Position numbers and translations under genes: made by a program
From: Candidatus Poseidoniaceae archaeon
Lineage (GTDB): Archaea; Thermoplasmatota; Poseidoniia; Poseidoniales; Poseidoniaceae
NCBI GenBank assembly: GCA_938030705.1
Contig: CALHIR010000005.1
Span: forward strand, 23,231-87,230
Direction of reading: 5' to 3'
DNA: 64,000 nucleotides
Notes under the pieces: generated by a model
Told to the model about the DNA's origin: nothing
The model's input: the letters and a program-made list of their open reading frames with translations, nothing else
The model's database searches: none
Shown: positions 3-17,921 of the stretch, piece after piece
Position numbering within the stretch: the stretch's first letter is position 1
How the letters are laid out: every line of letters begins with the position of its first letter

Positions 3-1904
3 GTTGATGGAGAGAAATTGGTCAACATTTTCCTCAAGCGACTGGCCGAACGTGGTGTCGAGGTCTCCGCAGAGCAGTTCTCGTCCATTACCGAACCACT
101 GGCAAATATTTACGCCATACCCGACCATTTGCATGCCTTGTGTAACATGCTGGGAGATGGCTTGGTGCCTTCGAACGCCAAGGCCGGATACTTGGCTCGT
201 ATGCTGGCACGCCGTGTGTTGCGAATGCGGGATGAACTGGACATTCAGGTGCCGCTCACGGAATTGGCAACGCACCACCTCGATGTCAATTTGGGCGGCC
301 AACTCAACAAGCAAACACGAGACGGCCTTCTCACGATTCTCGCTCTTGAAGAAGAGCGATATATCGAAATGCTACGGAAGGGCACGAACGTCATCCAAAC
401 ACAACTCAAATCCTTGCCAAAAGAGGCCACTGAAATCCCAGATGGTCATTTGTTCACCATGAATGACTCCCACGGTTTGGCGCCCGACATGGTCATCACC
501 TTGGCGAGGCATGCTGGATGGAACAGCGTCACCCTTCGGACGGGTTTTTCAGCGGAAATGGCCGAACGTCATGCTCGCATGGCGAAAGAAGCAGCAACGG
601 CCAACAGCGGTGGGGGTCATGTCCTTGACGTCGCAGGGTATCCGGCGACCACCCCACTCTACTACGAATCTGTTTACCTGCCCACCTTTGAGGCCAACGT
701 GCTTGGCTGTCAATCGGCAGAAGGCCTCGGGCCAGAGGGGGCCACGCACGCTGTTGTGTTGGATGCGACCTTGTTTTACCCAGAAGGCGGGGGCCAAGAA
801 GGGGACCGTGGTCGTCTCCAACAAAACAACGTCGGTGTCGATGTTCTCGATACTCAGAAGATTGGCGATGTCATCGTCCATTTCACCAACGGTCCCTTGG
901 ACGGTTCTCCTAACATCGAAGGTCATTTGGATTGGAAGCGACGAAAGCAATTGATGGATCACCACACTGCCGTTCACATCGTGGGTGGCGCAGCACGACG
1001 CCTCCTCGGACCGCACATCTTCCAAGCCGGTTCGCATTTGACGGTTGAAAGCGGCCGCTTGGACATCACCCATTACCATCGCTTGAACCGAGCCGACCTT
1101 GATGCCATGGAAGACATGGCCAACGAAGTACTCAGCGACGTACGTGCCACGGAAAAATCTGAATTAAACCGTCGAGATGCCGACATGGTTCACGGTTTTG
1201 ACCTGTATCAAGGCGGTGCACCGAAAGGAGATTCCATCCGGATCTTGAAAATTGCCGAACACGATATCCAAGCATGCGGAGGCACGCATCACGATGAACC
1301 TGGACAAATTGGTTCCATTCGGATTGTTCGCTCGTCTGCCGTTCAGGACGGTGTTGAGCGACTTCACATCGTCGCTGGCGAAGCGGCGTTGGCCTATGCC
1401 CGTTCTCAAGACGAATTGGTTCGGTTGTCAAGTGAGGTATTCGGTGTCCACGGGGACGATCTTCCAAAAGCAGCGGCTCGCTTCTTCAAAGAGTGGAAAG
1501 AACAACGAAAGTTGATTGAACACTTGGAATCAGAAATCGTTCGCTTGCGAACCTCCGGTGGTGGAGATGCTACGACCGACGTTGATGGAGTCCGTGTTGT
1601 CGTGATGGAAATCGATGGTGATCTAAAATCCATGACCACGATGCTCAAAGAACTGACCCTTGATGCTGCCCAACCAACCTTGGCAGTTCTTGGATCAAAA
1701 GATGGCGGTGGAAAACTGATGATCGGCGTGACCGAAAACACCCTCGCCAGTGAGCGGTACAACGCTGTCGACCTTCTTCGAAGCATCTCATCTCACATCC
1801 GTGGTGGGGGTGGCGGTCGTCCGACCTTCGCTCAAGGTGGTGGTTCGTACGCTGAAGGATTGGGCGACGCGCTCGATGCGGCGCGAGAACAGTTAGGTCT
1901 GTGA
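3..1904 (+). CDS. alaS: Alanyl-tRNA synthetase, C-terminal ~630 aa (5' end lies upstream of the window)
   Basis: The frame is open from nt 3, with no stop before the listed M at 18. It has the editing-domain metal motifs HHTAVH and CGGTHH and a Gly-rich DHHA1-like C-terminus (GGGGGRPTFAQGGG). Confidence 0.9.
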   Translation, partial: VDGEKLVNIFLKRLAERGVEVSAEQFSSITEPLANIYAIPDHLHALCNMLGDGLVPSNAKAGYLARMLARRVLRMRDELDIQVPLTELATHHLDVNLGGQLNKQTRDGLLTILALEEERYIEMLRKGTNVIQTQLKSLPKEATEIPDGHLFTMNDSHGLAPDMVITLARHAGWNSVTLRTGFSAEMAERHARMAKEAATANSGGGHVLDVAGYPATTPLYYESVYLPTFEANVLGCQSAEGLGPEGATHAVVLDATLFYPEGGGQEGDRGRLQQNNVGVDVLDTQKIGDVIVHFTNGPLDGSPNIEGHLDWKRRKQLMDHHTAVHIVGGAARRLLGPHIFQAGSHLTVESGRLDITHYHRLNRADLDAMEDMANEVLSDVRATEKSELNRRDADMVHGFDLYQGGAPKGDSIRILKIAEHDIQACGGTHHDEPGQIGSIRIVRSSAVQDGVERLHIVAGEAALAYARSQDELVRLSSEVFGVHGDDLPKAAARFFKEWKEQRKLIEHLESEIVRLRTSGGGDATTDVDGVRVVVMEIDGDLKSMTTMLKELTLDAAQPTLAVLGSKDGGGKLMIGVTENTLASERYNAVDLLRSISSHIRGGGGGRPTFAQGGGSYAEGLGDALDAAREQLGL

Positions 1905-2666
1905 TCAAAGCAAACTCCGAAGGGCTTCTCGGTCAAAATGCGATACAGCTTGTTCAAAGGCTTGCTGCGCGGGGAACCAAGCCGCTTCTGAAATCTCTTC
2001 TGTTTGGAGGGTCAGTTCGTCCACTTCTCCATTCCAAGTTGCTCGGTAGGTGAACGATACAAAGGAGATGCCTTCGTCGTTGAACACTCGCTGAGTAATG
2101 ACGGGCTCAACATCATCGAGCACGATGGTCAGGCCGAGTTCCTCCTGCGTTTCTCGCACACAACCGACCGTCGGGTGTTCGTTGTGGTCCATGTAGCCCC
2201 CGGGGAGGGTCCAAAAACCACGGAAATGACCTCGCTCTACCTTGCCCATCAAGACCTGACCGCCATCGTTGCACACCATCACTTTGGATACCAAGCGGTG
2301 CAGGGAACGGTAAATGGCACCTCGCACCACTGGGTGAACCCCGTTGTCAGATGCACACTGGTCTTTCCAAGCCCAATCCCTCGGCCATTCGACCTTTGGG
2401 TAGGCCTTGACGACGGTGTAGGTGATGCCGGTATAACGGAGGACCAAAGTCTCCTTTTCAATGAAGTCGAGGTCCATCTCTTGGAGTTCTTGTTTCGTCG
2501 GAAAGCGAAAGGTCTCTTCGGAGGTCATGCGCCCCTCGACGGGTTGTTGGGGGCCGTCTCCTTTTTCATTCACCAAGAAGACCTTTCCGTCGTGTTCAAG
2601 ATAAACCACTTCGGAGGGGTGCATGTCCTGTCCAACCTGTTGTGCGTCATGAATACTCGCTTCCAC
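1905..2666 (-). CDS. Nudix hydrolase with an N-terminal extension
   Basis: Canonical Nudix box GX5EX7REUXEEXGU is visible as GGYMDHNEHPTVGCVRETQEELGL. It is convergent with alaS and abuts it. Confidence 0.8.
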   Translation of the reverse strand: MEASIHDAQQVGQDMHPSEVVYLEHDGKVFLVNEKGDGPQQPVEGRMTSEETFRFPTKQELQEMDLDFIEKETLVLRYTGITYTVVKAYPKVEWPRDWAWKDQCASDNGVHPVVRGAIYRSLHRLVSKVMVCNDGGQVLMGKVERGHFRGFWTLPGGYMDHNEHPTVGCVRETQEELGLTIVLDDVEPVITQRVFNDEGISFVSFTYRATWNGEVDELTLQTEEISEAAWFPAQQAFEQAVSHFDREALRSLL

Positions 2667-2718
2667 TCATCGTCACCGTTCGTCAACCTTCAAAGCGGTC
2701 CGCTGTTTCGGCTCAACC

Positions 2719-3429
2719 ATGCGCTTTGAACAATTGAACGAAGGTGTTTGGGCCATGACGTACCTCATCGTGGATGAAGACACAAAGGAAGCCGCCCTTG
2801 TGGATCCAGTATTTGATTTCATGGAGAACTACACTTCGCTGCTCCAAGAGCAAGAATTGACCCTCGTCTATGCCATTGCCACCCACACACATGCCGACCA
2901 CATCACGGCATGCTTCAGTTTGCGCGAACAACTGGGCTGCGAATACGTGATGTCAAACGAAACGGCAAGTCTCGGTGTCTCCATGCACGTTGACGATGAA
3001 GAGAAGATCATGCTGGGATCGATTCCTATCCAATTCCATGCCGCCCCCGGCCACACCAACGATTCAATGATCGTTCATGTGCCCGGCTACATGATGACCG
3101 GAGATTTCCTCTTCAACGGCGAGGGTGGCGTGGGCCGAGATGACCTGCCAAGCGGGCGTGTTCATGTTCACTGGGACGCCCTATCTGTTCTGGATCGTTT
3201 CCAGGGGCACACCGTGGTGTGTTCCGGACATGACCCACCCGGCACGACCATGATGTCGTTGGATTGGAATCGAGAAAACAATCCCATCCTCTCAATGACG
3301 TCTTTCGAGGCTTTCCGCTCTTGGCAAGAAGCCACGGCGGCTAAGTTGGGCGGTGTTTCAAAAATTAAGACCGCCATACCTGCCAATCTTTTTGGCGAAC
3401 TCCCCGAATCGATACCCTGGCTTGAGTGA
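2719..3429 (+). CDS. Metallo-beta-lactamase fold hydrolase (glyoxalase II-like)
   Basis: HxHxDH motif (ATHTHADH), with downstream His/Asp ligands (HAAPGHT, SGHD). Confidence 0.8.
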   Translation: MRFEQLNEGVWAMTYLIVDEDTKEAALVDPVFDFMENYTSLLQEQELTLVYAIATHTHADHITACFSLREQLGCEYVMSNETASLGVSMHVDDEEKIMLGSIPIQFHAAPGHTNDSMIVHVPGYMMTGDFLFNGEGGVGRDDLPSGRVHVHWDALSVLDRFQGHTVVCSGHDPPGTTMMSLDWNRENNPILSMTSFEAFRSWQEATAAKLGGVSKIKTAIPANLFGELPESIPWLE

Positions 3430-3431
3430 AT

Positions 3432-4586
3432 TCATTTCTTGAGTGGGTTTTTGGGAGCCTTGGTGTCTTTTGGGACGGTGGGTAGGTTTTGCAATTCGTC
3501 AAACGTCATCTGCTGATGATTGGCTGAATCAAAGGCCGATAAACGTTCGTCCATGCCCATTCTGACGGTGAAGTCAATGCGTCCCTTGGAACGCGTCAGG
3601 TCGTAAGAGAGGGGTTTGAGATATTCGATGACTTGTGCCTCAAAGTCATGGCGAACCCGTTCTCCTCGCCAGGATGAATACCCCCACCGGTAGGAAATTC
3701 CAACGATGGCTGCGCCGTAAAGAAGCGTCAAAACAACCGTGGCGAAAAGAACAGGGTTGCCCCCGACATCTCTTGACTCCTCGAGGAGATTTCGGCCAAG
3801 CAGGAAGAGCAGACCGATACCAACCACTGGATTGAGCACGCCTTCAAGCCATTGGTTGACCGGAACAAGTCGCCCTTTGGCAGGGTCAACGAAGACCAAG
3901 TCTGCTTCGAAAGCCGTGTTCAACACGGACAGGACCGAAAGAAGTACCATGTAGAGGAAGGAGGAAACAATGAGTTCAACGACCAACGAATCAAGGTTCA
4001 ACACCCAGTGAACGATAAGCCACGCAAAGAGGCCCAAAAAGGCGGCCTGTGGTACATAATTGAAGTGTTCAATGTGTTGAGAAAATTCCGTGAGCGACTT
4101 GCGTTGTTCACGGGTTCCCCGATGTGGTTTTGGAATGTGAATCACCTGCCAGTGCATCAGCCGTTCAATCGTTTTGAGGCTCCAAATCAGAAGTCTTTGA
4201 CGAATGAGGAGGTACTCCATGAAGAGCATGAATGGAAAGCCAATCAACACCAACGGCAGGGCCATGATGGCTGAAAGGGGCAAGATGAGCAAGGCGGGCA
4301 GCAGGAGAAAATGAGAGAGCGTCAGTGGATGAAGCATTTCGGCTTCGATGAGACGTTGTTTCGTTGGTGGAATGCGCAGGTTTCGGGCAATGTCATCCAG
4401 TGTTTGTGAAAACGAGGCCACTTGATGGCCGGAGTCCAGAATTTGCCTGACGACGGTCCGGTATTCTGAGACCTCGTGTCCAACCCCCACCCAAAACTGC
4501 CACGCAAGCCTCATTGGAAGGGCCAGAAGGAGCGGGAGGGCTAAGATTCCCGCACCCCAGAGAAGCTCTTGAATTTCCGACTCCAC
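3432..4586 (-). CDS. Polytopic membrane protein, function unknown
   Basis: Long uninterrupted ORF with several hydrophobic spans (LLWGAGILALPLLLALP, LLLPALLILPLSAIMALPLVLIGFPFMLF, LGLFAWLIVHWVL and others). I recognise no family motif. Confidence 0.5.
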   Translation of the reverse strand: MESEIQELLWGAGILALPLLLALPMRLAWQFWVGVGHEVSEYRTVVRQILDSGHQVASFSQTLDDIARNLRIPPTKQRLIEAEMLHPLTLSHFLLLPALLILPLSAIMALPLVLIGFPFMLFMEYLLIRQRLLIWSLKTIERLMHWQVIHIPKPHRGTREQRKSLTEFSQHIEHFNYVPQAAFLGLFAWLIVHWVLNLDSLVVELIVSSFLYMVLLSVLSVLNTAFEADLVFVDPAKGRLVPVNQWLEGVLNPVVGIGLLFLLGRNLLEESRDVGGNPVLFATVVLTLLYGAAIVGISYRWGYSSWRGERVRHDFEAQVIEYLKPLSYDLTRSKGRIDFTVRMGMDERLSAFDSANHQQMTFDELQNLPTVPKDTKAPKNPLKK

Positions 4587-4687
4587 GGTGCTTCCTCATC
4601 ACCCCCCACTTGCTTGGGGTTGTTGAAAACAACGGTCTCTGACAGGTCAATCCGAATGTTCTAACGCCGTCGTGTCCTCAACCGTCC

Positions 4688-5671
4688 ATGGCCAGAATTG
4701 CCGTCACCGACGGAATGGACAAAAAGGCGGTTTCACGCCTTCAAAAAGCAGGCCATGAGGTGGTCGTAGCCTCCATTGAAAAAGCCGAGCTTGCCGGTGG
4801 TGCGCTCCAATCGTTTGACGCCATCATCGTCAGAAGTGCCACGAAACTGACCAAAGAGGTGTTGAACGCCTCGGGAGAACGACTGAAAGTGATTGGACGG
4901 GCTGGCGTTGGTGTTGACAACATCGATCTCGAGACGGCCGGCTCCCTCGGCATCAAAGTGGTGAATGCGCCTCGGGCCAGCACCCAGTCAGTGGTGGAAC
5001 TGACCCTTGCTCACTTGTTGGCCTCCATCCGTCATTTGCCACGAGCAGACCGTAGCCTTCGGAATGGCCAATGGGAGAAGAAAGCCATGAAAGGATCAGA
5101 ACTTTCTGGAAAAGCCCTCGGCCTCATTGGTTTTGGGCGCATTGCTCAATCGGTCGGACGCGTCGCCCAAGCCTTGGGTATGGAAATTCACGCCTATGAC
5201 CCTTATCTCCCGCCCAAAGTGGCCAAATCTCAGGGGACGCGCCTCCACAAAACCCTCGAGTCATTGTTCTCCAATTGCACCCATATTTCCATTCACTGCA
5301 ATTTGACCGAGGAGACCTATCACCTCGTCAACGCCCAACGGCTTGCCTCCATGCCTCACATCGGAAAAGACGGTTCTCGGTGCGGCAGCCATATCGTCAA
5401 TTGTGCACGGGGGGGCATCGTGGATGAAGACGCTGTTCTTCAAGCTCTGGAATCCGGCACCCTCACTTCTGCAGCGCTCGATGTTTTTGAAAACGAACCG
5501 GTCGACCCGAATCACCCGCTTCTTCAGATGGAATTTTTCCACGGTACGCCTCACATCGGGGCTTCGACGGTTGAAGCTCAAGGGCGTGTCGGCATGGACA
5601 TTGCCACCAACGTGATGGATGCGCTTGACGGTCGTCCTTGTGATTTTGTTGTCAACAAAGCCTTCCTCTAG
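4688..5671 (+). CDS. serA: D-isomer-specific 2-hydroxyacid dehydrogenase, D-3-phosphoglycerate dehydrogenase-like (no ACT domain)
   Basis: IGRAGVGVDNIDLETAGSLGIKVVNAP, the NAD-binding GLIGFGRIAQSVG, and the catalytic-region pattern ARGGIVDE...HIGAST. The symbol is tentative. Confidence 0.75.
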   Translation: MARIAVTDGMDKKAVSRLQKAGHEVVVASIEKAELAGGALQSFDAIIVRSATKLTKEVLNASGERLKVIGRAGVGVDNIDLETAGSLGIKVVNAPRASTQSVVELTLAHLLASIRHLPRADRSLRNGQWEKKAMKGSELSGKALGLIGFGRIAQSVGRVAQALGMEIHAYDPYLPPKVAKSQGTRLHKTLESLFSNCTHISIHCNLTEETYHLVNAQRLASMPHIGKDGSRCGSHIVNCARGGIVDEDAVLQALESGTLTSAALDVFENEPVDPNHPLLQMEFFHGTPHIGASTVEAQGRVGMDIATNVMDALDGRPCDFVVNKAFL

Positions 5672-5735
5672 CACTTTCACTTTCAATAAATGGGTCTGCA
5701 ATAAGCATCTCTTTCTTCTTCGGGCTCGTAGAGGT

Positions 5736-6005
5736 ATGGGTCGGAGTGTGCCACCATGGCGAACACGAGTGGAGAATGAATTACAACATTTGACGCCTTA
5801 TCGTCGTGCTCTTTCGTCCGTTGATCAGGCGGCTTTCGATGCGCTTTTGGATGCGGTACGTGAGCGCCGTGCAGCGGGGGGGATGCTTCCCGCAGTGAAC
5901 ACTTGGCAACCCACCGTACTCAGCATGATGGTCGGGCTGATGGGGCAACTCCAACAACTCTCGGACCGAATCCAGACGCTTGAGGAACGGCATCGTCATG
6001 ATTGA
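5736..6005 (+). CDS. Small hypothetical protein (89 aa) translationally coupled to polB
   Basis: The first ATG after the serA stop is at 5736. The TGA at 6003-6005 overlaps the polB ATG at 5998 (ATGATTGA). The predicted product is helical (…LQQLSDRIQTLEERHRHD). No family recognised. Confidence 0.4.
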   Translation: MGRSVPPWRTRVENELQHLTPYRRALSSVDQAAFDALLDAVRERRAAGGMLPAVNTWQPTVLSMMVGLMGQLQQLSDRIQTLEERHRHD

Positions 6006-8451
6006 GGGGTGGTTGTTGGACGTTCACGAGAACGAGACAAACTCCGGCATGGTGGCGTGGATTGTTGATGACCAAGGAGAAGCACATGGCTGTGTTCTTC
6101 CTTGGCAACCCTTGATTCATGTTCACGCCTCGCACCGCTCGCTTGACCGTTTAGAACACTGGTTGAATCAACCTGAATTACGTCAGCGGTTTAGCATCGG
6201 CACCATCCTCCCCACGAGGGCACGTTTAGATTTGGAGGCCGAAGACCAAGTCGATGTTCTCTCCATCGCTCTACGTTCCTACCGGCATGTACGTGCACTT
6301 GCGGAACACATTGAGGCGAGGGGTGATTTTCATCGGTTCAAACTCTATTCGGTCGATGCCCATCTGGCTCAACGGTTTCTAAATGAACACGGTTGCATGC
6401 CGTTTCAACGGGTCCGATGGTGTGCCTCTGACCCAACTCGTCTTGAAGCGTTGAACGATTCATCGGCGAAGAGCGATGTGTACCCCCCGTTTCATGTGGT
6501 TCGTCTGACCGTAGAATTCACCTCAGGCGAAGGGTTTCCCTCACAAGGCGATACCGTTGAACGTATTTGCTTAAACACGGTTCAGGAACCCGGTCTTTCC
6601 CCTCCGCGAAGGGTTGTTTCGCACGCATTTGAGCGCAGTAAATTTCCATCGCTCTCCGTCATGCTCAATGCCTTTCAAACGATCATTGCCTCCATCGATC
6701 CGGATGTTGTGCTGACCGCAGGAGGCGACCAGCGTTGGTTTCCATGGCTCATTGAACAGGCCGAGGTGCACAACACACCGATTGTCCTTGGGCGAACCGC
6801 TGAGCATCTTCAACAGTCCACCGGTCAACGCACCGTTCATTCCTATGGGCAAACACGGCATCGGCACGGGGCTTTCTTTCTCAAAGGGCGTCTCCATCTT
6901 GACGTGAAGAACAGTTTCATCGTCAACGAAGGTGGTCTTGCCGGTCTGTTTGAACTGGCGCAGCATTCGCGACAATCAGCCCAGATCATCTCTCGTCTTT
7001 CCCCGGGCTCGGTCATCAGTGCAATACAGATGCGGGTGGCTATGGATGATGGGGTCTTGGTGCCCTGGAAGAAAAACCGTCCCGAGGACACCAAATCGGC
7101 GCTGGACCTCCTCCATGCCGACCGGGGAGGGTTGTACCTTGACAGTCGCCCCGGCGTGCATGCATCTGTTCTTGAACTCGATTTTGCGAGTCTCTTTCCA
7201 AGCATCATCGCCACACGCAACATCTCACCTGAGACGCTGAATTGTTCCTGCTGTCAAACGCTTCCTTCGAACATCGCTCGCGGCGTGGTGCCCTTGCATC
7301 CTCGTGAAGCGGCAGAAGAATTTCGCAAGCGTACAGTAGTGTCAAGATTCGGGCACGGGCTTTTCCCACTCGCCAATGAAAAGGCCCTTCCCGTGCCGGG
7401 TCTCAACATGCACACATGCGGACGAACGCACGGGTTTCTCGGGCGAGTGGTGGCGCCGATCATCGAGCGGCGACGGGCATTGAAACGTCTACGTCAGCAC
7501 AAAGGCGATGCCTACGATTTGCGGCAGAATGCACTGAAGTGGCTGCTGGTGACGTGCTTTGGGTACACGGGCTATCGTAATGCCCGCTTTGGTCGCATCG
7601 AAGCCCATGAAGCCATTTGTGCGTGGTCTCGTGATCTGCTGTTGACAACGATTGAAGCGGCTCAAAAGGAGGGCTGGGACGTGCTTCATGCCATCGTTGA
7701 TTGTGTCTGGCTCTCGGACACCAAGGGGCGCTCATCTGAACAGCAGCGTGCAGAGGCCGAAGATTTTGCCCAACGCCTGTCTGAACAGGTTGGTATTCCA
7801 CTTGAGTTCGAAGCGCATTATGACTTCATTGCGTTCCTTCCAAGTCGGATGCACGGTTCGGGTTCGCTCACCAAGTATTGGGCTTACACAGGTGAAGAAT
7901 TCAAGGTTCGAGGCATTGAACTTCGTCAACATTCCACGCCCCGTTGGGTCAGGGATTTACAACAGAGCGGGTTGGAATTACTGGCCGAAGGAGACCGTGT
8001 TCAGGGGCTCCCTTCTCCCGCAACCCAACGGGCGGTACTGATGCACTATCGGCGTGAACTTCAGCGATTGGAGGCTGGTGAGGTTCCACTTTCTTCCCTT
8101 GTGATCACGCGCAGAACCTCCAAAGACGCAGCGAGTTATCGTGTGAAGAACCTGACTTACGGAGCACTCATGCGAGCGCATGAACGTGGTTATGTTGTTC
8201 CACCTGGCGGGAAAGTGCGGTATGTCGTCGTGGACAGTTCGTCCACCGAACCGCTGCAACGGGTTCGCTTGGCGGAGGAAATCGAGGCCTGCGAACCTTT
8301 GTTTTCCGGATGTCCGATTCACTATGCTGAACTCGCTGAACGGGCGATTTGGGCTCTTCTCGCGCCGTTTGGGTGGACCACTGAACAGATTCGCCTCGAC
8401 GGCCGACAACCGAGCCTTCTGGAGTTTACTCGTCTTGATGCTGCAGGGTGA
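5998..8451 (+). CDS. polB: Family B DNA polymerase with unrecognisable 3'-5' exonuclease motifs (PolB2-like)
   Basis: Pol motif A is LDFASLFPSII. Motif B is KWLLVTCFGYTGY. Motif C reads VLHAIVDCVWL at the position of YxDTDS. KxY region is LTKYWAY. The expected Exo I/II/III positions read RLTVEF, GGDQRWFPWL and AQHSRQS. The track ORF starts at a TTG at 5980; the ATG at 5998 is preferred. Confidence 0.85.
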   Translation: MIEGWLLDVHENETNSGMVAWIVDDQGEAHGCVLPWQPLIHVHASHRSLDRLEHWLNQPELRQRFSIGTILPTRARLDLEAEDQVDVLSIALRSYRHVRALAEHIEARGDFHRFKLYSVDAHLAQRFLNEHGCMPFQRVRWCASDPTRLEALNDSSAKSDVYPPFHVVRLTVEFTSGEGFPSQGDTVERICLNTVQEPGLSPPRRVVSHAFERSKFPSLSVMLNAFQTIIASIDPDVVLTAGGDQRWFPWLIEQAEVHNTPIVLGRTAEHLQQSTGQRTVHSYGQTRHRHGAFFLKGRLHLDVKNSFIVNEGGLAGLFELAQHSRQSAQIISRLSPGSVISAIQMRVAMDDGVLVPWKKNRPEDTKSALDLLHADRGGLYLDSRPGVHASVLELDFASLFPSIIATRNISPETLNCSCCQTLPSNIARGVVPLHPREAAEEFRKRTVVSRFGHGLFPLANEKALPVPGLNMHTCGRTHGFLGRVVAPIIERRRALKRLRQHKGDAYDLRQNALKWLLVTCFGYTGYRNARFGRIEAHEAICAWSRDLLLTTIEAAQKEGWDVLHAIVDCVWLSDTKGRSSEQQRAEAEDFAQRLSEQVGIPLEFEAHYDFIAFLPSRMHGSGSLTKYWAYTGEEFKVRGIELRQHSTPRWVRDLQQSGLELLAEGDRVQGLPSPATQRAVLMHYRRELQRLEAGEVPLSSLVITRRTSKDAASYRVKNLTYGALMRAHERGYVVPPGGKVRYVVVDSSSTEPLQRVRLAEEIEACEPLFSGCPIHYAELAERAIWALLAPFGWTTEQIRLDGRQPSLLEFTRLDAAG

Positions 8452-9211
8452 GGATACCCAATGATGGATTTCCTCCCCTCCGATTGAATGTCCGCTCTGT
8501 GAGGCGGAAACGAGTTTGTGATATGTTCTCAAAAGGACGCCAATGCCCATGAAGACCTGACCGACGATGGAGAAGATGCAGCCTCCTCCTTTGCCGCCTT
8601 CCAGTCCACCTTCCCTCCAGATGGTTTTGAGCGTGGCGATGCAGGTGTTGAAGCAATCGGGCGTCGGTGTGCTGTGAACGGAAGGTGCCCGTGATGGCGA
8701 TGACAGCAACGTGTTGCTGCTCAGCCAGCTGACGCAAAATACGAACATGTCTTCGCAACAAGGTTCTCGATTCAATCGTTGAAACAGCATCATCACCGTG
8801 CATGGCAAGCAGACCGTCAACCACGATCATGGGTGCGCGTGTGATGGCGAGTTCGTGCGGTAATCGTTCGATTTGCCGATCCAATTGATGAAGCGTGAAG
8901 CCCCTGCTCAAGTACAATCGTGAGAGGCAGTGTTCCACATCCGCGCCCAGCGCTTCCAAACCGGGAATAAAACGTGAAGGGTCAATCCGACAAGCCCCAT
9001 CCACCCAGTGGACCACTTCGCCTTGTGCCAACGCATGAACAACCCAATGTTCGGCAACGCACCGCATGCTTTTACCCGCACGCCCTGGTCCACTCAGGTG
9101 GTAGAGTTGACCTCGTACGGGCTGAAGAGCGCTCGGGTCAATGCCCTGACGTCGTTGAATCACACCCGTGTCGGGCTGCGTGGTTGTTCCTTGGTGCTGC
9201 ATGCGAATCAT
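8426..9211 (-). CDS. RecA-superfamily ATPase (RadB/ImuA-like) with an Arg/His-rich C-terminal tail
   Basis: Walker A GPGRAGKS and Walker B-like MIVVDGL. A Rad51/RadB-like segment LYLSRGFTLHQL follows the Walker A region. Start chosen at the ATG at 9211 (MIRMQHQG); the longer track ORF (to 9364) would run into dinB. The 3' end overlaps polB by 26 nt. Confidence 0.65.
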   Translation of the reverse strand: MIRMQHQGTTTQPDTGVIQRRQGIDPSALQPVRGQLYHLSGPGRAGKSMRCVAEHWVVHALAQGEVVHWVDGACRIDPSRFIPGLEALGADVEHCLSRLYLSRGFTLHQLDRQIERLPHELAITRAPMIVVDGLLAMHGDDAVSTIESRTLLRRHVRILRQLAEQQHVAVIAITGTFRSQHTDARLLQHLHRHAQNHLEGRWTGRRQRRRLHLLHRRSGLHGHWRPFENISQTRFRLTERTFNRRGGNPSLGILTLQHQDE

Positions 9212-9214
9212 TGA

Positions 9215-10441
9215 ATGTCGTCGGATGAGGTCATCTATCCTTGCGAAGACCCCTTGGTTGAACTGAATCATCACATCAAGTTCAAACACCGCTGGCACCG
9301 TTGGAAGTCTGTGGTGGAGAAACCCGTTGGTCAGGTTGATGATGGTCCACGGATTATCATTCATTGCGATTTAGATGCCTTTTATGCAGCGGTTGAAACC
9401 CTTCACCACGGATTTGATGAGGCCGTCCCCCTCATCATCGGTTCAGACCCAAAACAAGGACGAGGTCGGGGTATTGTCTCCACCTGTAACTATGCGGCGA
9501 GAGCCTACGGCATTCGTTCTGCGATGCCGGTATCGGAAGCCTGGCGCCGGTGCCCTGCGACACCGTTCGGACCGGCGATTTACATTCGTGGCACACGCGG
9601 TCTCTACAGCAGAGCGAGCCGAAAGGTGATGGCGGTCCTGCATGAAGTAGCCGACTTGTTTGAAAAGGCCAGTATCGATGAAGCCTACCTCGATGTCACC
9701 GACCATGTGAGTGGTGATTGGGATGCAGCCCTTGCTTTGGCGACCAACTTGCAGCAGAAGATCAAGGAAGTTGTCAGTTTAACAGCGTCTTTTGGCATCG
9801 CTCCAACTCGGCTTGTGGCCAAGATGGCCAGTGAGGTGAACAAACCCAACGGCATCTTTCGGGTAATGCCCGATGAAGTGCAATCGTTTTTCGAAGGACG
9901 TTCTCTTCGTGAGCTTCCTGGCATCGGGCCAAAACGAGCGACTCAACTGGCAGAGTGGGGCTACACCACGGCGGACGAACTCTACGATTTGGGCGAACTC
10001 TCCCTCGCACGGCTTGCTGGGGAACGCTTTGCCGCCTGGTTCATGCGAGTGGTGGACGGCGAGAGCAGCGCTGTCGTGAGCCCCTTACGAAGCCGAAAAT
10101 CAATTGGGAAGGAACACACGTTTGAGCGCGACCAAGCCGACCACGAAGAGGTGATGGAGCGGCTTGAGCAGTTGGTGTCGTTGGTCATGGAACGAGCGGT
10201 AAGTCTGGGGGTCTCGGGACGACTTGCTGAAGTAAAGATTCGATACACGGGGTTTGAAACGCACACGTCCGGACGAAGTATTCCCGTGGCCATGGACGAA
10301 GAAACGGTGTTCAAACGTCTTGCAAATGGATTGTTTGCGACCAATATTCGTCCCGGCTCGTCCGTCCGGCTCATCGGTTTCCGGCTGGGCCAATTGGAAA
10401 TTCCTGAATCCCGCCAGGCCACGCTGTTTGAAGAGGAATAA
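9215..10441 (+). CDS. dinB: Y-family DNA polymerase IV (DinB/Dpo4)
   Basis: IIHCDLDAFYAAVE and SIDEAYLDVT catalytic motifs, FGIAPTRLVAKMAS, and the HhH-like LRELPGIGPK. In-frame GTGs at 9311/9314 are alternative starts and would leave a ~100 nt divergent spacer. Confidence 0.9.
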   Translation: MSSDEVIYPCEDPLVELNHHIKFKHRWHRWKSVVEKPVGQVDDGPRIIIHCDLDAFYAAVETLHHGFDEAVPLIIGSDPKQGRGRGIVSTCNYAARAYGIRSAMPVSEAWRRCPATPFGPAIYIRGTRGLYSRASRKVMAVLHEVADLFEKASIDEAYLDVTDHVSGDWDAALALATNLQQKIKEVVSLTASFGIAPTRLVAKMASEVNKPNGIFRVMPDEVQSFFEGRSLRELPGIGPKRATQLAEWGYTTADELYDLGELSLARLAGERFAAWFMRVVDGESSAVVSPLRSRKSIGKEHTFERDQADHEEVMERLEQLVSLVMERAVSLGVSGRLAEVKIRYTGFETHTSGRSIPVAMDEETVFKRLANGLFATNIRPGSSVRLIGFRLGQLEIPESRQATLFEEE

Positions 10442-10443
10442 CT

Positions 10444-12945
10444 TCACTCCAACTGGTGCATTCGGGTTAGCGTGGCTGCGAAGTCCGTCAACTCTTCTGG
10501 AATGGACACACCAGCAATGGGCTGATTGAGTGAGATGCCAGCTTCTTTCTTCTTGGCCCAGGTCTGACCGTTGAATTCTTGCAGCGAATGCGAGAGGGCA
10601 CAGAGGCGGGTCCCTTCATCGGTTCCGTAGGCGACATCCTCAAGGGGCGCAGCCGGGAAAACATCAACATCGACAGAAGATGTCCCATAGACCGTGCTGG
10701 AAATGTGGTGGGTAAAGAACGGACAGACTGGGCTAAAGGCCGCCATGAAATCTCGGACCATGCGATGAAGGGTCCAGGCAGCTGCTTGGTCATCATCGTA
10801 CAGTCTCGACTTGACCATTTCCAAATAGTGACTTGGTAGCAGGCCAGTCCCGAAGGTCTTCAGCGCTTGAGTCGCCGTGTAGATGTCCAAATTCCTCCAC
10901 GAGGTTTCAACGGTGTGCATCGTGTTTTGGAATTCTGCAAGAATCCACCGGTCTTCGGAAGCCAACGAACTTGGGGGGGCATCAAGGTTCTCCGGAACCT
11001 CGAATTGAGATGCAAATCGTGCGACATTGAACAATTTGGTCAAGATACCAAAATACTTCTTTTCGATCTCTTCGGGATTGATGTGGAAATCGTCACCGAC
11101 TTGAGCATCGCATGCCTTCCACAGTCGGAAACATTCGCTACCGATTTTATTGGCTCGCAATTTGACAGAGCCGTCAGGGCCCTTGACTTGCCAAGAACCT
11201 GTTCGGCCACCTGCACCACATTCGAGGACAGAGTCAGCGTCAATTCCATTGCCGAGGGATTTGCTCATTTTCCGGCCCCACGGGTCCATGCCGAGCCCGT
11301 CAATCCAGACATGTTGGAACCCCGGTTGGTCCAAAACCAGCGTTGACTTCAACAGCGTATAGTACAACCACGTGCGGACAATTTCCTTTCCTTGAGGGCG
11401 AAGCGCCGTTGGGAATGCTTTGGCAAACACTTCGGGATGGTTGAGGTAACCGCTGACAAAGAGGTTGGAGTTTGAAGAGTCCATCCACGTGTCGAACACC
11501 TTCTCTTCTCCTTTCAATCGCCCAAGGGCATCTGCAATGTCTTCGTAGGCACCGAGGTCTTCCCGGGAGATTCGGTCCAAGACTCGACTCCCCTCGGGAG
11601 GTTCATCCTTCCATGGTTGCACATACATTCCAGCGGGTGGCACGACCACTTGCGTTTCGTCTTCGCTGTACCAAATTGGAATTTCAGTGTGGTACCACCG
11701 GCGACGACTGATGGGCCAATCAATGCTGATGTTGTCCATCCAGTCAAGCAAGAATTGACGATTGCGCACAGGGTGGAACTGGATGGATTCAATGTGCTCC
11801 CGCATTCGGTCCTGAATGTGAGTTTGGCGGACATACCACTCTTTGAGCAGGATGATTTCAACCGGATTCTTTCCTCGCTCGGAGACCGGAATGTCTTGGT
11901 CCCGTTCCACGGCTTGAACCAAACGACCGGATTGTTCGAGCAGGTCAATGGCTTGGGTTCTTGCTTCCAATACGGAGAGCCCTTGCAAGGGGCCGGAGAT
12001 TTCCGTCATTTTTCCGTCAAGGTCAATGGCTTGGAACGGCGTAAGTCCCAATTCTCTGAAGACGGCCACGTCGTTTTGGTCGCCAAAGGAACAGACCATC
12101 AAAACGCCCGTCCCGAAATCGGATTTGACCGAGGGGTGTTCCTGGACGGTCACCGTGGTCGAGCGGCCACTGGTATCCACCGGGAGTGAGATTTCTTTGC
12201 CAACCAAGTGTTGGTATCGTTCGTCATCGGGGTGAACCACAACCACGCCGCAAGCACAGATGAGTTCAGGGCGTGTGGTTGAGATGACGAGTTCTGTACC
12301 GTCTTCGCAGGTCCAACGCACATCAACGAGTTTGGTTTTCCGAGGAAGGCGTTCAACTTCGGCGTCTGCGATGGTGGTTCCCTCAACGGGGTCGTAGATA
12401 TTTGGGCGCAGGTCTTCGATGATGTCGCCTTTCTTGAACAACTCAACGAAGATGGATTGCGTCACGCTCCGGTAATCTGGGGCATCCGTCAAGTATTCAC
12501 GAGAAAAGTCGCATGAGAGTCCGACACGTTTCGCGGTGTTTCTCATGGCTTGGGTAAAGGATTCAATGGTGGTTTCACAAAGCTTGAGGAATTCGTCCCG
12601 GTCGTAGGTCTTCATCTTTCGTTTGGTGTTTTTCTCAACGGTAAACTCGATGTTGATGCCGTTTCGGTCAACCCCCCAGGGGAAGTAGACTTCTTTCCCA
12701 AGGAGGCGTTGACTTCGTGCAAGTACATCGATCATCGAGTACTGGGCAACAGCCCCTATGTGCCAGGTGCCAGAGGGGTAGGGGGGAGGCGTGTCGATGA
12801 CGAAAGGCTCTTTGCCGCTCTCTGGATTAAATGCATAACGGCCACTGTAGGCTTCTTCGTCAGCGTAGTGAGCTTCTTGGATGGTCTTTTCGAGGTCGAT
12901 CGACCATCGTTTTTCTGGTATTTTTGGGGCTGGCATGTGCCTCAC
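10444..12945 (-). CDS. valS: Valyl-tRNA synthetase (archaeal type)
   Basis: FVIDTPPPYPSG N-terminal signature, CP1/editing segments TTRPELI...VVVHPDDERY and GTGVLMVCSFGDQNDV, and KMSKSLGN. The HIGH position reads WHIGA (see findings). Confidence 0.8.
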   Translation of the reverse strand: MRHMPAPKIPEKRWSIDLEKTIQEAHYADEEAYSGRYAFNPESGKEPFVIDTPPPYPSGTWHIGAVAQYSMIDVLARSQRLLGKEVYFPWGVDRNGINIEFTVEKNTKRKMKTYDRDEFLKLCETTIESFTQAMRNTAKRVGLSCDFSREYLTDAPDYRSVTQSIFVELFKKGDIIEDLRPNIYDPVEGTTIADAEVERLPRKTKLVDVRWTCEDGTELVISTTRPELICACGVVVVHPDDERYQHLVGKEISLPVDTSGRSTTVTVQEHPSVKSDFGTGVLMVCSFGDQNDVAVFRELGLTPFQAIDLDGKMTEISGPLQGLSVLEARTQAIDLLEQSGRLVQAVERDQDIPVSERGKNPVEIILLKEWYVRQTHIQDRMREHIESIQFHPVRNRQFLLDWMDNISIDWPISRRRWYHTEIPIWYSEDETQVVVPPAGMYVQPWKDEPPEGSRVLDRISREDLGAYEDIADALGRLKGEEKVFDTWMDSSNSNLFVSGYLNHPEVFAKAFPTALRPQGKEIVRTWLYYTLLKSTLVLDQPGFQHVWIDGLGMDPWGRKMSKSLGNGIDADSVLECGAGGRTGSWQVKGPDGSVKLRANKIGSECFRLWKACDAQVGDDFHINPEEIEKKYFGILTKLFNVARFASQFEVPENLDAPPSSLASEDRWILAEFQNTMHTVETSWRNLDIYTATQALKTFGTGLLPSHYLEMVKSRLYDDDQAAAWTLHRMVRDFMAAFSPVCPFFTHHISSTVYGTSSVDVDVFPAAPLEDVAYGTDEGTRLCALSHSLQEFNGQTWAKKKEAGISLNQPIAGVSIPEELTDFAATLTRMHQLE

Positions 12946-13099
12946 CTGGCCCCGTCTCGGTCAATGAGGTGGGTCCAATCCGTCGGATGAGGGGCATCAT
13001 TTCAACCCGTCGGCCGAACGATGAAAGACAAAGCATCAACGCCCGCGGGGAAGGTAAGCCTTTGAAGGTCAATGGTTTGGCCAAGGTTGAGGTGGTGAT

Positions 13100-16000
13100 G
13101 TGGTTTCAGGCGATGACGCATCAAAAAACACCTCGGCACAAGATTCCGTGCCAATTTCCGAAGGAAACCGCCGTCTCGAATCCATCACGGGAGCAAGTCG
13201 GGCGGTCAGAGATCAACTTGTTGGGCAAATGAAAACGATCGATTCCAAACGCACCCTTGATGCCGTGTTGGACGCTCCAAAGCGGTTTAAGCGAGAATGG
13301 CAAAAAACGGGGGCGACGGGAGCCATCACCAAGTTTCCCATACCGACCATCTTGATTTTTCTCTTACTCACCGTTTACTTCGTAACTCAATCTGGTTTCC
13401 TTGACAACACGCAGTTTGACGACGACCCCAACAACCCGGCATTAAACGTGAACGGTGATTTGGAGGTTTACCTCCCCGATGGAAGTCGGGTTGCGGAACT
13501 GATCGGTAAAGTTGAGGAAGATTGGTCGACCAACGTCATGGTTGTTTACATTGAATCCGACAAAAACAACATCACGGATCAACGCATATTGCAAGAGATC
13601 AGTTATGTGGAAAACATCCTCAATCCTTATCTCTCTGATGATTCGGACGACGTGATTTACATCCTTTCTCTTTCCACCGTTCTAAAGGAAGTGAATTCCA
13701 GTGCGCCACGAATCCGGGAAGCCATCATCACAGAACTTGGAGAACTCGGTTGTTCAAACGATCCTACGGATGAATGTCCATCTCGGGATTTCGCTGAAAA
13801 TATAAACGATGGATTGGCGACAACAGATGACACCTTTGGTGGCTCCTATGAAATTCCGAGCCAGACAACCATTGACCTCGTCGTGAGTGAGATGTACACC
13901 GACGAAGGTGAACCTACCGCCGGTATGAATAAACTGGCTCGGGACATTGAGGGCGGTGAAGACGGTGGGCCAGATGGCTTGCTCGACCGCGCTATCATGG
14001 CCATCGCCGTCACGGAAGAGCGACCCGCAAAGGAAATTATTGCAGACACTCAAGAAGTCCTTGACACCATCGCTTCCATGGAACGTGCCTGCTTGTACGA
14101 TGCAAACGGCAATCCCGTTGAATCAGAGGGCGTTTGCACTTGGGAAGACCTTGGTCTCACCATGGTCCTCACCGGACCGGTTCCCATCACAAACGCTGTG
14201 ACTGAATTTTCCTTCAAGTTGTTTTGGGACATCTTCCCGAAGGCGGTTGTCCTCGTGGCCATCGGTCTGTTTGTGTTCCACTCCGACCTACTTCAAGCAG
14301 GGCTGACCGGCATTCGTCCACTTCAAGGGTTCAAGGTCATCGTGATTGCCGGCCTTCCAACGCTTTGTGCCGTCTTTTGGACCTTGGGTCTGATCGGGGC
14401 GACGAATTATGAGGTTACGATGACGGTGATTATCGTCGGTCCAATATTACTCGCGTTGGGGGTGTCGTACGGGTTACACATCACGAATAGGTACGCTGAA
14501 GAAGAGGGATCGAAAAGCGAAAAGATGCGTGCTTCATTGAGTTCCACTGGACGCGCCGTTTTTCTATCCGCCGTCACCACGGTGATTGGTTTCATTTCCT
14601 TGGTCTTCACACCCATGGCCCCCATTCAAACGGTGGGTATTGCGCTTTCGGGGGGCATCGTCATCGTCTATCTCCTCACGATGTTTATGGTGCCCAATTT
14701 GACCCTTATTTTGGATTTGAAGAAGCCAAAGCATCCGCCACTCAAGGCTTTTGATGTCCTTGTTGACATTCCTGTGAAACGAAACAAAGGTGTCATTGGC
14801 GTCTTTATCCTGATGGTTCTGCTCTCGGCCACCATTGGGCAAGCCAACGTTGAGGAGAACATCGATCTGCTCGGCATGGCTCCAGAAGGCGAATCGCCGG
14901 TTGTCAAAATGAAGCAATACAGCCAAGAATTTGAGGCCGGACAGGTCGGAATGATTCTCGTCAACGCCAACGTGAGCGGTGATTTTAACGACGAGGACGT
15001 TTCAAACGATGACCCGGTCGCCATTTTACAGAAAATAGACAATTTGGAGGCATCCCTCAACACCGTTGAAAACACCACCGCAGTTTCGGTTGTTTTCTTG
15101 ATGAAATCCTCCGGTGTTCAGGTGACCATTTCAGGGGAACAGGTCAATGAACTGCTCCAACTCATTCCATGCGGTGGGAACGAACAATGCGAAGACGTCA
15201 AGACCACGGCTGACGTATTACTCAGCCAAAGTCAATCCTTGGATGGCTCCTTTTGGGACCTGCTTAACGACCCCGACGCCTTCGGTTTGCCAGGCTCACA
15301 ACAAAGCCAAATCTTCCTTCTGGACGTTTTTTATGCGTCTCTGACCAAGGAAACCCGTGAAATTTTCGTCAGCGAGGACTTTAGCCGCTCTCTCATCTAT
15401 GTCGATATGCCGTTTATCCCCGTAGCCGATACAGCCAAGAGCGTGGATTCGGTGAACGAAAAAGCTGCCACCTTCCAAGGCCGGTACGGGGAAACGGCAG
15501 AGGAACTGACGGGTGTCGCAGCGACTGCAATCGAGGTCAACGAACTCATCGTTGGTTCTCAATGGACCTCCCTTGGTTTTGCCATCATCTTGACCCTCAT
15601 CACGCTCGCCATTGTCTTCCGGGACATCCGGTACTCAATATGGACCACCTCGCCGGTCATTGCCACGGTGGCTCTTCAATGGCTGGTCATGTGGCAAATG
15701 GACGTTCCATTATCCCTCGTTACGGTCATGATCGGGTCAATTCTCGTTGGCGTTGGCGTAGACTTTTCAATTCACATTTCGAACAGAATACGCGAACTGG
15801 GTGGCGGGATTCAAGCGATACGAAGCGCTGCCGTAGGTACCGGAATGTCGCTCTTTGAGGCCGCCGTGGTCACCTCACTTGGTATGTTCACTGCCTACGA
15901 TATTCCTATTCCAGAGATTAAACCGTTCATCACCGTTATTCTGATTTTGCTGTGGGTTGCCGCCGCTAGTGCCCTGATTCTTCTTCCGGCCATTTTCGTC

Positions 16001-16138
16001 ACGTTGGAAAAGATGGGCATAGGGGCGGTCAGCGGAAGCAACAACATGGCAAAGAAACTCGGCTTAATTCGCAACGTTTCTGCCACCGATGACGTGATGG
16101 AGGCCGCCTTGGTAGACGATGTGGTCGATGCTTGGTGA
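13100..16138 (+). CDS. RND-superfamily/MMPL-type exporter (HAE3-like) with large extracytoplasmic loops
   Basis: Two blocks of ~5-6 hydrophobic helices (around VVLVAIGLFVF...GIVIVYLLTMFMVPNL and LGFAIILTLITLAIVF...LILLPAIFVTL), each preceded by a large soluble domain. This is the typical 12-TM MMPL/RND layout. The track start is a GTG; the first ATG is at 13229. Confidence 0.75.
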   Translation: MVSGDDASKNTSAQDSVPISEGNRRLESITGASRAVRDQLVGQMKTIDSKRTLDAVLDAPKRFKREWQKTGATGAITKFPIPTILIFLLLTVYFVTQSGFLDNTQFDDDPNNPALNVNGDLEVYLPDGSRVAELIGKVEEDWSTNVMVVYIESDKNNITDQRILQEISYVENILNPYLSDDSDDVIYILSLSTVLKEVNSSAPRIREAIITELGELGCSNDPTDECPSRDFAENINDGLATTDDTFGGSYEIPSQTTIDLVVSEMYTDEGEPTAGMNKLARDIEGGEDGGPDGLLDRAIMAIAVTEERPAKEIIADTQEVLDTIASMERACLYDANGNPVESEGVCTWEDLGLTMVLTGPVPITNAVTEFSFKLFWDIFPKAVVLVAIGLFVFHSDLLQAGLTGIRPLQGFKVIVIAGLPTLCAVFWTLGLIGATNYEVTMTVIIVGPILLALGVSYGLHITNRYAEEEGSKSEKMRASLSSTGRAVFLSAVTTVIGFISLVFTPMAPIQTVGIALSGGIVIVYLLTMFMVPNLTLILDLKKPKHPPLKAFDVLVDIPVKRNKGVIGVFILMVLLSATIGQANVEENIDLLGMAPEGESPVVKMKQYSQEFEAGQVGMILVNANVSGDFNDEDVSNDDPVAILQKIDNLEASLNTVENTTAVSVVFLMKSSGVQVTISGEQVNELLQLIPCGGNEQCEDVKTTADVLLSQSQSLDGSFWDLLNDPDAFGLPGSQQSQIFLLDVFYASLTKETREIFVSEDFSRSLIYVDMPFIPVADTAKSVDSVNEKAATFQGRYGETAEELTGVAATAIEVNELIVGSQWTSLGFAIILTLITLAIVFRDIRYSIWTTSPVIATVALQWLVMWQMDVPLSLVTVMIGSILVGVGVDFSIHISNRIRELGGGIQAIRSAAVGTGMSLFEAAVVTSLGMFTAYDIPIPEIKPFITVILILLWVAAASALILLPAIFVTLEKMGIGAVSGSNNMAKKLGLIRNVSATDDVMEAALVDDVVDAW

Positions 16139-16176
16139 GCGTTGAGTCCATAGACCCCTTTGGTCTCCGAAGGACC

Positions 16177-16647: not shown

Positions 16648-16656
16648 ACAGGTGAG

Positions 16657-17886: not shown

Positions 17887-17921
17887 GAGAATTCATCAAT
17901 CCAAACCTTGGCGATGAACTC

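Follow-up and report, generated by a model that had tools for sequence, protein, structure and literature searches.

In the present work we analysed a 64-kb stretch of DNA from a Candidatus Poseidoniaceae archaeon (the window), and our interest centred on a locus at positions 5736-10441 that contains a small open reading frame (ORF), a B-family DNA polymerase gene, a gene for a RecA-fold protein and a Y-family polymerase gene. The best explanation of this locus, to which we assign a probability of roughly 0.85, is the known archaeal PolB2-iRadA-PPB2 translesion complex in its group 3b layout, with a syntenic DNA polymerase IV (Pol IV, DinB) gene as neighbour. The first three genes (hereafter the trio) are an already catalogued member of a published system that includes the Poseidoniales. 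This identification rests on the presence of the diagnostic features of that system and on the 63-73% identity between the window proteins and catalogued Poseidoniales operons. The initial annotation of the locus had proposed a four-gene, mutasome-like damage-tolerance cassette that was thought to be undescribed for euryarchaea. The damage-tolerance assignment holds for PPB2, PolB2 and iRadA, whereas membership of DinB is not supported, and the presumed novelty is contradicted by publication of the trio in euryarchaea, Poseidoniales operons included (PMC4104785, PMC11791011). The finding as first put is consequently a rediscovery of a published system.

Linkage of the trio in archaea was recognised in 2013-14. 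Makarova et al. (2014, PMC4104785) described PolB2, a helical protein of about 90 residues (arCOG07300) and an inactivated RadA paralogue as a conserved neighbourhood of Crenarchaeota and Euryarchaeota. Timinskas et al. (2025, PMC11791011) renamed the arCOG07300 protein PPB2 and the RadA paralogue iRadA, catalogued 1,823 PolB2 operons, listed the diagnostic features and modelled a PolB2-iRadA-PPB2x3 heteropentamer as a translesion "mutasome". Poseidoniales operons are labelled '3b (PPB2-PolB2-iRadA)' in the supplement of that report, with AlphaFold-Multimer ranking scores of 0.81-0.87 for the pentamer (PMC11791011). Comparison of the window proteins with one of these modelled Poseidoniales sets gave 73% identity for PolB2 (to MBN29951, a catalogued group 3b PolB2) and 63% identity over 260 aa for iRadA (to the catalogued MBN29950, E 9e-118). 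A literature search pairing Poseidoniales with PolB2 returned no paper. Sequence searches of the PDB with the polymerase and the RecA-fold protein matched Thermococcales PolB and RadA/RadB entries and returned no PolB2 or iRadA structure.

The gene arrangement proved largely as first reported. The small ORF (5736-6005, plus strand) encodes 89 aa and does overlap the polB start codon, with its TGA (6003-6005) and the polB ATG (5998-6000) both lying inside ATGATTGA; PPB2 and PolB2 are translationally coupled through this overlap. The PolB2 gene (5998-8451, plus strand, 817 aa) converges on the iRadA gene (8426-9211, minus strand, 261 aa), and the reported 26-nt overlap of their 3' ends (8426-8451) was likewise confirmed. 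The divergent orientation of iRadA and DinB (9311-10441, plus strand, 376 aa) also stood, but the starts assigned to these two genes, 9364 and 9215, did not. The iRadA start was moved to the ATG at 9211 because most homologues are 261 aa long and begin MI.M. The DinB start was moved from the ATG at 9215 to the GTG at 9311 because the spacer of relatives varies out of frame (96-131 nt) and the column at 9311 is a conserved GTG or ATG. With the corrected starts, 99 nt of intergenic sequence (9212-9310) lie between the divergent genes, which accordingly neither overlap nor start 3 nt apart.

A PolB2 profile scan of species-representative genomes yielded 186 relatives, and the best 80 loci, all of the Poseidoniales type, were used with 10-kb flanks for the mapping of nine window proteins. 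The closest proteins and loci belong to metagenome-assembled genomes of Candidatus Poseidoniales (Marine Group II), labelled mostly Poseidonia sp. PPB2 and iRadA flank PolB2 in the window, and the same holds for 80/80 related loci (one contig ends before iRadA). The order and strands PPB2(+)-PolB2(+)-iRadA(-) are identical in 79/79 informative loci, so that iRadA is opposite in strand to PolB2 wherever it is reached. Conserved linkage across related genomes, the absence of which the initial annotation had named as a refutation, is seen for the trio but only in part for dinB: in about 25 loci, which form a nested clade, dinB does not adjoin the trio.

Domain analysis of PolB2 demonstrated a B-family polymerase with a decayed exonuclease domain. 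The Pfam DNA_pol_B match is clear (E 4e-21), while the exonuclease domain reaches 19.4 bits against a cut-off of 23. Alignment to Thermococcus PolB shows motif A retained (LDFASLFPS on LDFRSLYPS), YSDTD of motif C replaced by HAIVD such that IVD (residues 566-568) stands opposite DTD, ExoII degenerate (NGDNFD to GGDQRW) and the ExoI and ExoIII regions unalignable. The sub-threshold domain score and the degenerate motifs together indicate loss of the exonuclease site, in agreement with the initial description of an exonuclease-motif-less PolB. D395 (motif A), D568 (motif C), D375 and R376 are invariant in 12 relatives. Comparison with Saccharolobus/Sulfolobus islandicus Dpo2, the crenarchaeal PolB2, gave 28% identity (E 7e-31) and placed the two PolB2 signatures on each other: DK253-254 of Dpo2 on DR375-376 (ADKGG/ADRGG), before the GG preceding motif A, and IID401-403 on IVD566-568 (HSIID/HAIVD), the first motif C Asp being replaced in both. 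The dead exonuclease motifs and the IVD and DR signatures indicate that this polymerase is not of the PolB3 type.

The C-terminus of PolB2 additionally contains QPSLLEFT (residues 804-811; 8407-8430, plus strand), a candidate motif of the PCNA-interacting-protein (PIP) type. L807 is invariant and F810 nearly invariant among relatives, and in the alignment QPSLLEF falls on QVGL near the C-terminus of Thermococcus PolB, a stretch that we take to be the PIP box of that enzyme. No PIP-like motif was found in iRadA. This distribution fits the published remark that clamp-binding motifs rarely occur in both PolB2 and iRadA (PMC11791011).

The RecA-fold protein corresponds to a RadA/Rad51 ATPase core without the N-terminal domain. 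Pfam assigns it to Rad51 (E 1e-5), its AlphaFold2 (AF2) model is confident over core residues 25-228 with disordered tails, and the top Foldseek matches of this model are Dmc1, RAD51 and RadA cores (probability 1.0, E 1e-10). Alignment to RadB 2cvf and RadA 4a6p shows that the catalytic Glu of vDTE is replaced by an invariant Ala (VDGA), which disrupts the ATPase site. The RadB equivalog model TIGR02237 scores 31.3 bits against a cut-off of 172.4 and, together with the absent catalytic Glu, indicates that the gene is not an ordinary RadB. The P-loop is degenerate in more distant relatives (GPGHAGRG, SPYKAGRH, GSTRRCQL). The canonical Walker A of the window protein (GPGRAGKS) looks like a relic or like a nucleotide-binding site no longer able to hydrolyse.

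The small ORF product has the features reported for PPB2, with 89 aa, three helices (7-23, 28-46 and 54-88) and a free N-terminal arm in the AF2 model (predicted local distance difference test score, pLDDT, 71). The arm, MGRSVPPWR, agrees with the published description (MGRT, with Arg3 and usually Arg9). M1, G2, R3, S4, V5, P6, W8, R9 and R11 are invariant in 25 homologues, and 78/78 sequences begin MGRS or MGRT with R3 and R9 invariant. A Foldseek search of the PPB2 monomer against the PDB returned no significant match, and Pfam and NCBIfam scans gave nothing useful beyond one sub-threshold IS110 match. Precomputed annotation places the Pfam domain PF26485.1 on all PPB2 homologues (P0190-P0244); the family was evidently added to a newer Pfam release.

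Taken against the Dpo2 mutasome of S. islandicus and of the group 3b operons catalogued for Poseidoniales, the locus has the same three proteins in the order PPB2-PolB2-iRadA, the MGR[ST] arm, the DR/DK and IVD/IID signatures, a dead exonuclease and a RadA core lacking the N-domain and the catalytic Glu. It differs in several respects. The window iRadA is convergent and has its own promoter instead of belonging to a single co-directional operon, and it has a canonical Walker A. PolB2, at about 817 aa, retains an extensive but decayed N-terminal/exonuclease region. It is PolB2 and not iRadA that bears the PIP-like motif, and orc1/cdc6 is not nearby.

iRadA lies on the opposite strand and therefore is not co-transcribed with PPB2-PolB2. 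Alignment of upstream regions revealed a composite box, TTTCAnTTTCA ... GGGTCT ... AAGCAT, that is common to the PPB2-PolB2 unit and iRadA throughout the lineage. The PPB2-PolB2 box (5672-5708, plus strand) reads CACTTTCACTTTCA-N6-GGGTCT-N5-AAGCAT; it comprises tandem ACTTTC repeats, the GGGTCT element and, some 30 nt ahead of the ATG, the TATA-like AAGCAT. The box was found in 77/77 loci with enough sequence (0-1 mismatch relative to TTTCACTTTCA in 57 and 2-3 in 20), is also kept where loci sit in unrelated genomic contexts and has no other exact copy in the 64-kb window. A copy with one mismatch at 25574-25584 was dismissed on account of its position inside a 1,026-aa ORF. The iRadA box (9235-9268, minus strand), ATTCAGTTCAA-N5-GGGGTCT-N4-AAGGATAG, is a shortened PPB2 box, the form of the window's clade, and its composite pattern occurs nowhere else in the window. 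Loci of the DinB-less clade and of the DinB-linked L039-L046 clade have TTTCACTTTCA with 0-2 mismatches upstream of iRadA. A strict version of the motif gave 95 matches in 1.47 Mb of loci, 57 of them upstream of PPB2 or iRadA, and about 5 in total in shuffled sequence. These loci are homologous, and conservation of the box across changed contexts is a stronger argument than motif counts. AAGCAT or AAGGAT lies about 24-38 nt before the start codons of PPB2 and iRadA and is placed as the TATA box of a short-leader or leaderless transcript would be, which would position the repeats upstream of the core promoter.

The iRadA-DinB spacer contains a further conserved element, ATCAAGTTCAAACACC (9275-9290, plus strand), 21-36 nt upstream of the DinB GTG. 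Every DinB-linked locus keeps this element, irrespective of which form of the iRadA box is present. The GGGTCT/AAGCAT module is missing from it, and it probably represents DinB's own core promoter. A reading of TTGAACT...AGTTCAA in this spacer as a single palindromic operator was rejected by cross-clade comparison. The two halves belong to the iRadA box (minus strand) and the DinB box (plus strand), since they stand further apart in other clades.

The tandem repeats resemble a crenarchaeal regulatory element in sequence. Experiments in Sulfolobales have established that damage induces the trio and have defined the Orc1-2/ANTTTC element: Orc1-2 binds the ANTTTC hexamer, mutation of the hexamer abolished damage induction in four reporter promoters, and induction of Dpo2 is Orc1-2-dependent. 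In the PPB2 box two ANTTTC hexamers stand in tandem (ACTTTCACTTTC), 52-63 nt ahead of the start codon, in front of the same genes that are under Orc1-2 induction in S. islandicus. Unlike the Sulfolobales element, the box occurs in a euryarchaeote, is tandem and is followed by GGGTCT. Only two aspects appear to be new: the division of the trio into two units with a common promoter box, and the resemblance of this box to the crenarchaeal damage-response element.

At this locus PPB2-PolB2 on the plus strand and iRadA on the minus strand form two convergent units behind the same lineage-conserved box. Published work on relatives suggests that a PPB2 trimer would join a single PolB2 and a single iRadA in one complex, with the MGRS arm predicted to insert between PolB2 and iRadA near the DNA. 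iRadA would serve as an ATPase-dead structural subunit, held by a loop that resembles the RadA oligomerisation contact and lies just before the DR motif of PolB2. Docking on PCNA probably occurs through QPSLLEF at the PolB2 C-terminus, and the complex, devoid of proofreading, would extend mismatched or lesion-opposed primer ends after DNA damage. Conceivably, the tandem ACTTTC box may act as a damage-responsive element like the Orc1-2-bound ANTTTC and induce both convergent units together.

Several observations weigh against this interpretation. Assembly, activity and damage induction of the Poseidoniales PolB2 system are all extrapolated from Sulfolobales genetics and in silico models. The hhalign comparison with S. 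islandicus PPB2 aligned residues 1-23, the N-terminal arm, only (probability 50%, E 1.6e-4), and profile comparison with S. islandicus iRadA detected no similarity. The latter is as expected from the rapid divergence of the iRadA family reported in 2014 (Makarova et al. 2014, PMC4104785). The canonical Walker A and Walker B Asp of the window iRadA make nucleotide binding possible. With regard to regulation, the ANTTTC likeness rests on a short motif, the published neighbourhood table has no orc1/cdc6 gene near any of the 95 group 3b operons (PMC11791011), and the position of the iRadA box in the middle of the 99-nt spacer would in principle permit co-regulation of DinB in this lineage.

The Y-family gene merits separate treatment. 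The claim that its catalytic motifs are intact was upheld, as DLDAFYA and SIDEAYLD are both present. The protein has the domains of a Pol IV, namely IMS (Pfam E 2.5e-39), IMS_C (5e-19) and HhH, and it exceeds the cut-off of the NCBIfam Pol IV equivalog NF002677 (277.2 against 256 bits). Its best matches are to bacterial Pol IV models (PRK02406, 277 bits), and it scores just 153 bits with NF002292 (PRK01216), which we take to be the archaeal Dpo4-type model. QATLF in its C-terminus (...ESRQATLFEEE, 10411-10438) resembles the bacterial beta-clamp motif (QL[SD]LF) and not an archaeal PIP box. DinB may have been acquired from bacteria.

DinB adjoins iRadA in 52/80 loci. Wherever the contigs of these loci extend, an entire block is collinear, comprising a metallo-beta-lactamase-fold (MBL) protein, a membrane protein, a dehydrogenase, the trio, DinB, valyl-tRNA synthetase (ValRS) and an MMPL transporter; the tie of DinB to the trio is therefore no closer than that of ValRS. 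In about 25 loci another gene stands beside iRadA and no DinB occurs within 10 kb, the neighbours including a histidine phosphatase, a YdjM-like protein with haem genes, an M28 peptidase, a glycosyltransferase and an MBL-fold protein. In a neighbour-joining PolB2 tree the loci without DinB group as a single clade surrounded by DinB-linked ones, and within this clade the context has changed at least four times with the trio intact. The published neighbourhood data agree. An IMS domain occurs within five genes of 46/95 group 3b operons and of 10/1,728 others (Table S1, PMC11791011), and 2-Hacid_dh_C, tRNA-synt_1 and Lactamase_B are near 45, 42 and 32 of the same 95 (PMC11791011). The DinB linkage is thus lineage-specific synteny, which had been tabulated before though without discussion. 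DinB is best explained as an ordinary stand-alone Pol IV gene that neighbours the trio through a collinear housekeeping block and has stood beside it since an ancestor of this Poseidoniaceae group. A partnership in which DinB inserts and PolB2 extends neither requires this linkage nor is demonstrated by it.

One DinB-linked locus, L044, has a ceramidase-like membrane protein and a CDP-alcohol phosphatidyltransferase between PolB2 and iRadA (L044:12412-14664). Both the iRadA box and the adjacent DinB are retained there, which shows that iRadA is an independent transcription unit.

The main competitor to the group 3b assignment is a genuine four-gene cassette, in which DinB is a functional component co-regulated with iRadA from their shared divergent control region, and in which the RadA-like protein loads or regulates both polymerases or DinB inserts and PolB2 extends. 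We consider it unlikely. DinB is start to start with iRadA in 52/52 loci of the collinear group across PolB2 identities of 50-86%, the PolB2 tree makes DinB linkage paraphyletic and hence probably ancestral, and at L044 iRadA still adjoins DinB even though two unrelated genes split it from PolB2. The iRadA box is nearly equidistant from the iRadA ATG (47-56 nt) and the DinB GTG (44-53 nt), and Dpo2 reportedly acts chiefly in mismatch extension (cited in PMC11791011), which would suit an inserter-extender pairing. However, the flanking 2-hydroxyacid dehydrogenase, MBL protein, membrane protein, ValRS and MMPL gene are equally fixed in the same 52 loci, and DinB adjacency therefore carries no signal beyond background synteny. 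The nested clade in which the trio was moved or reshuffled without DinB, the scarcity of IMS genes beside PolB2 operons outside group 3b and the different promoter box of DinB all count against membership, and the S. islandicus Y-family polymerase, unlike Dpo2, is not damage-induced. A bolder reading makes the tandem ANTTTC-type box before both convergent units a damage- or UV-responsive switch, the euryarchaeal counterpart of the Sulfolobales Orc1-2 element, that would control the mutasome genes of surface-ocean Poseidoniales and, in the Poseidonia lineage, also drive the divergent dinB to form an inserter-plus-extender island; this too is unlikely, though not remote.

The remaining alternatives question the trio itself. 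The original 2014 proposal (Makarova 2014, PMC4104785) raised a catalytically inert PolB2-iRadA-PPB2 complex that regulates replication or origin use, and the replaced first Asp of motif C and the lost exonuclease site and iRadA catalytic Glu would agree with it. This reading seems to us quite improbable, given that Dpo2 is active and needed for damage-induced mutagenesis in Sulfolobus/Saccharolobus (genetics and biochemistry, cited in PMC11791011), and that Asp395, Asp568 and the KWLLVTCFGYTGYRN region are invariant across Poseidoniales, as expected of a working active site. Chance association of two housekeeping genes, a replicative PolB3 and a normal RadB orthologue, could draw on the best sequence matches among solved structures, Thermococcales PolB (E 6e-47) and RadB 2cvf (E 5e-5). 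It is already contradicted by the RadB score far under its cut-off, the missing catalytic Glu and unconserved P-loop of the iRadA family, the exonuclease and signature motifs of PolB2 and the constant company of the three genes, and we give it hardly any credence. Practically negligible is the prospect of a mobile-element polymerase from a casposon, pipolin or integrated virus. Its one favourable sign, a PADLOC match of PolB to a 'homing endonuclease' model, covers the conserved polymerase region only and was judged spurious. The flanks are housekeeping genes, and the locus is collinear across 52 species-level genomes. Nucleotide composition is flat along the window with no shift at the locus, and no integrase, Cas1 or terminal-protein domain was present among the Pfam-annotated flanking genes (18-5671 and 10444-20918).

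Comparison with better-known mutagenesis systems places the PolB2-iRadA-PPB2 complex in perspective. Like the E. coli Pol V mutasome (UmuD'2C-RecA-ATP), it would join a small oligomeric accessory subunit and a single RecA-family protomer to an error-prone polymerase, and by analogy with its crenarchaeal relatives may be damage-inducible. It differs in that its polymerase is of the B-family and not the Y-family, PPB2 is unrelated to UmuD, and iRadA is a dedicated inactive paralogue in place of a protomer from an active recombinase filament. The initial comparison to the bacterial ImuA-ImuB-DnaE2 cassette survives as an analogy only. Both systems include a RecA-fold accessory protein and a second-copy replicative-family polymerase for damage-induced mutagenesis, but ImuB is a catalytically dead Y-family scaffold and DnaE2 a C-family enzyme. 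The locus has neither; its Y-family enzyme is an intact Pol IV, its second polymerase is B-family, and the parts share no homology beyond the superfamily level. Eukaryotic two-polymerase translesion synthesis pairs a Y-family inserter with the B-family extender Pol zeta. The likeness there lies in a proofreading-deficient B-family extender with accessory subunits and a Y-family enzyme in the same cell, here next door. The accessory subunits are not homologous, and any hand-off between the polymerases would be hypothetical in this lineage.

The abundant marine Poseidoniales accordingly carry a complete PolB2 mutasome, which bears on mutation supply and ultraviolet (UV) tolerance in surface-ocean archaea. 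In this order the mutasome is encoded by two convergent units with a shared promoter box and not by an operon, and the box offers a concrete cis-element for use in the search for a euryarchaeal DNA-damage regulon.

Some additional features of the loci deserve mention. In 12 DinB-less loci (L056, L060-L063, L069-L072, L076, L078 and L080) a gene of 600-780 aa with an N-terminal DNA-photolyase domain (E 6e-8) lies on the same strand directly upstream of PPB2 (one gene away in L063; e.g. L062:3308-5305, plus strand). The L070 version has an amine-oxidase/FAD domain fused to it. This further light- or damage-themed neighbour is kept across several downstream contexts. The gene divergent from iRadA in L056, L060, L062, L063, L069 and L071 encodes the YdjM-like membrane protein (e.g. 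L062:8989-9558, plus strand), whose Pfam match of 24.5 bits stays short of the 29-bit cut-off. In E. coli YdjM is under LexA control, a likeness that may be fortuitous.

The upstream surroundings of the locus in the window consist of alanyl-tRNA synthetase (AlaRS), a NUDIX protein, the MBL-fold protein, a membrane protein and the 2-hydroxyacid dehydrogenase, and the downstream surroundings consist of ValRS, the MMPL transporter, an EVE-domain protein and an aminotransferase. No further PolB, RadA or PPB2 paralogue was found in the 64-kb window. The EVE-domain protein (16132-16647, plus strand, E 4e-50) and the NUDIX hydrolase (1905-2666, minus strand) lie at most 6 kb from the locus. Both belong to the housekeeping block and keep their positions throughout the collinear group, with no evident link to the mutasome. 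Two database records carry unexpected names: L017 (NZEQ01000045.1), binned as 'Verrucomicrobiales bacterium', contains the Poseidoniales block at 84-94% protein identity, and protein P0074, named 'Candidatus Woesearchaeota archaeon', is 82% identical to the window PolB2. Both are probably mis-binned or mislabelled.

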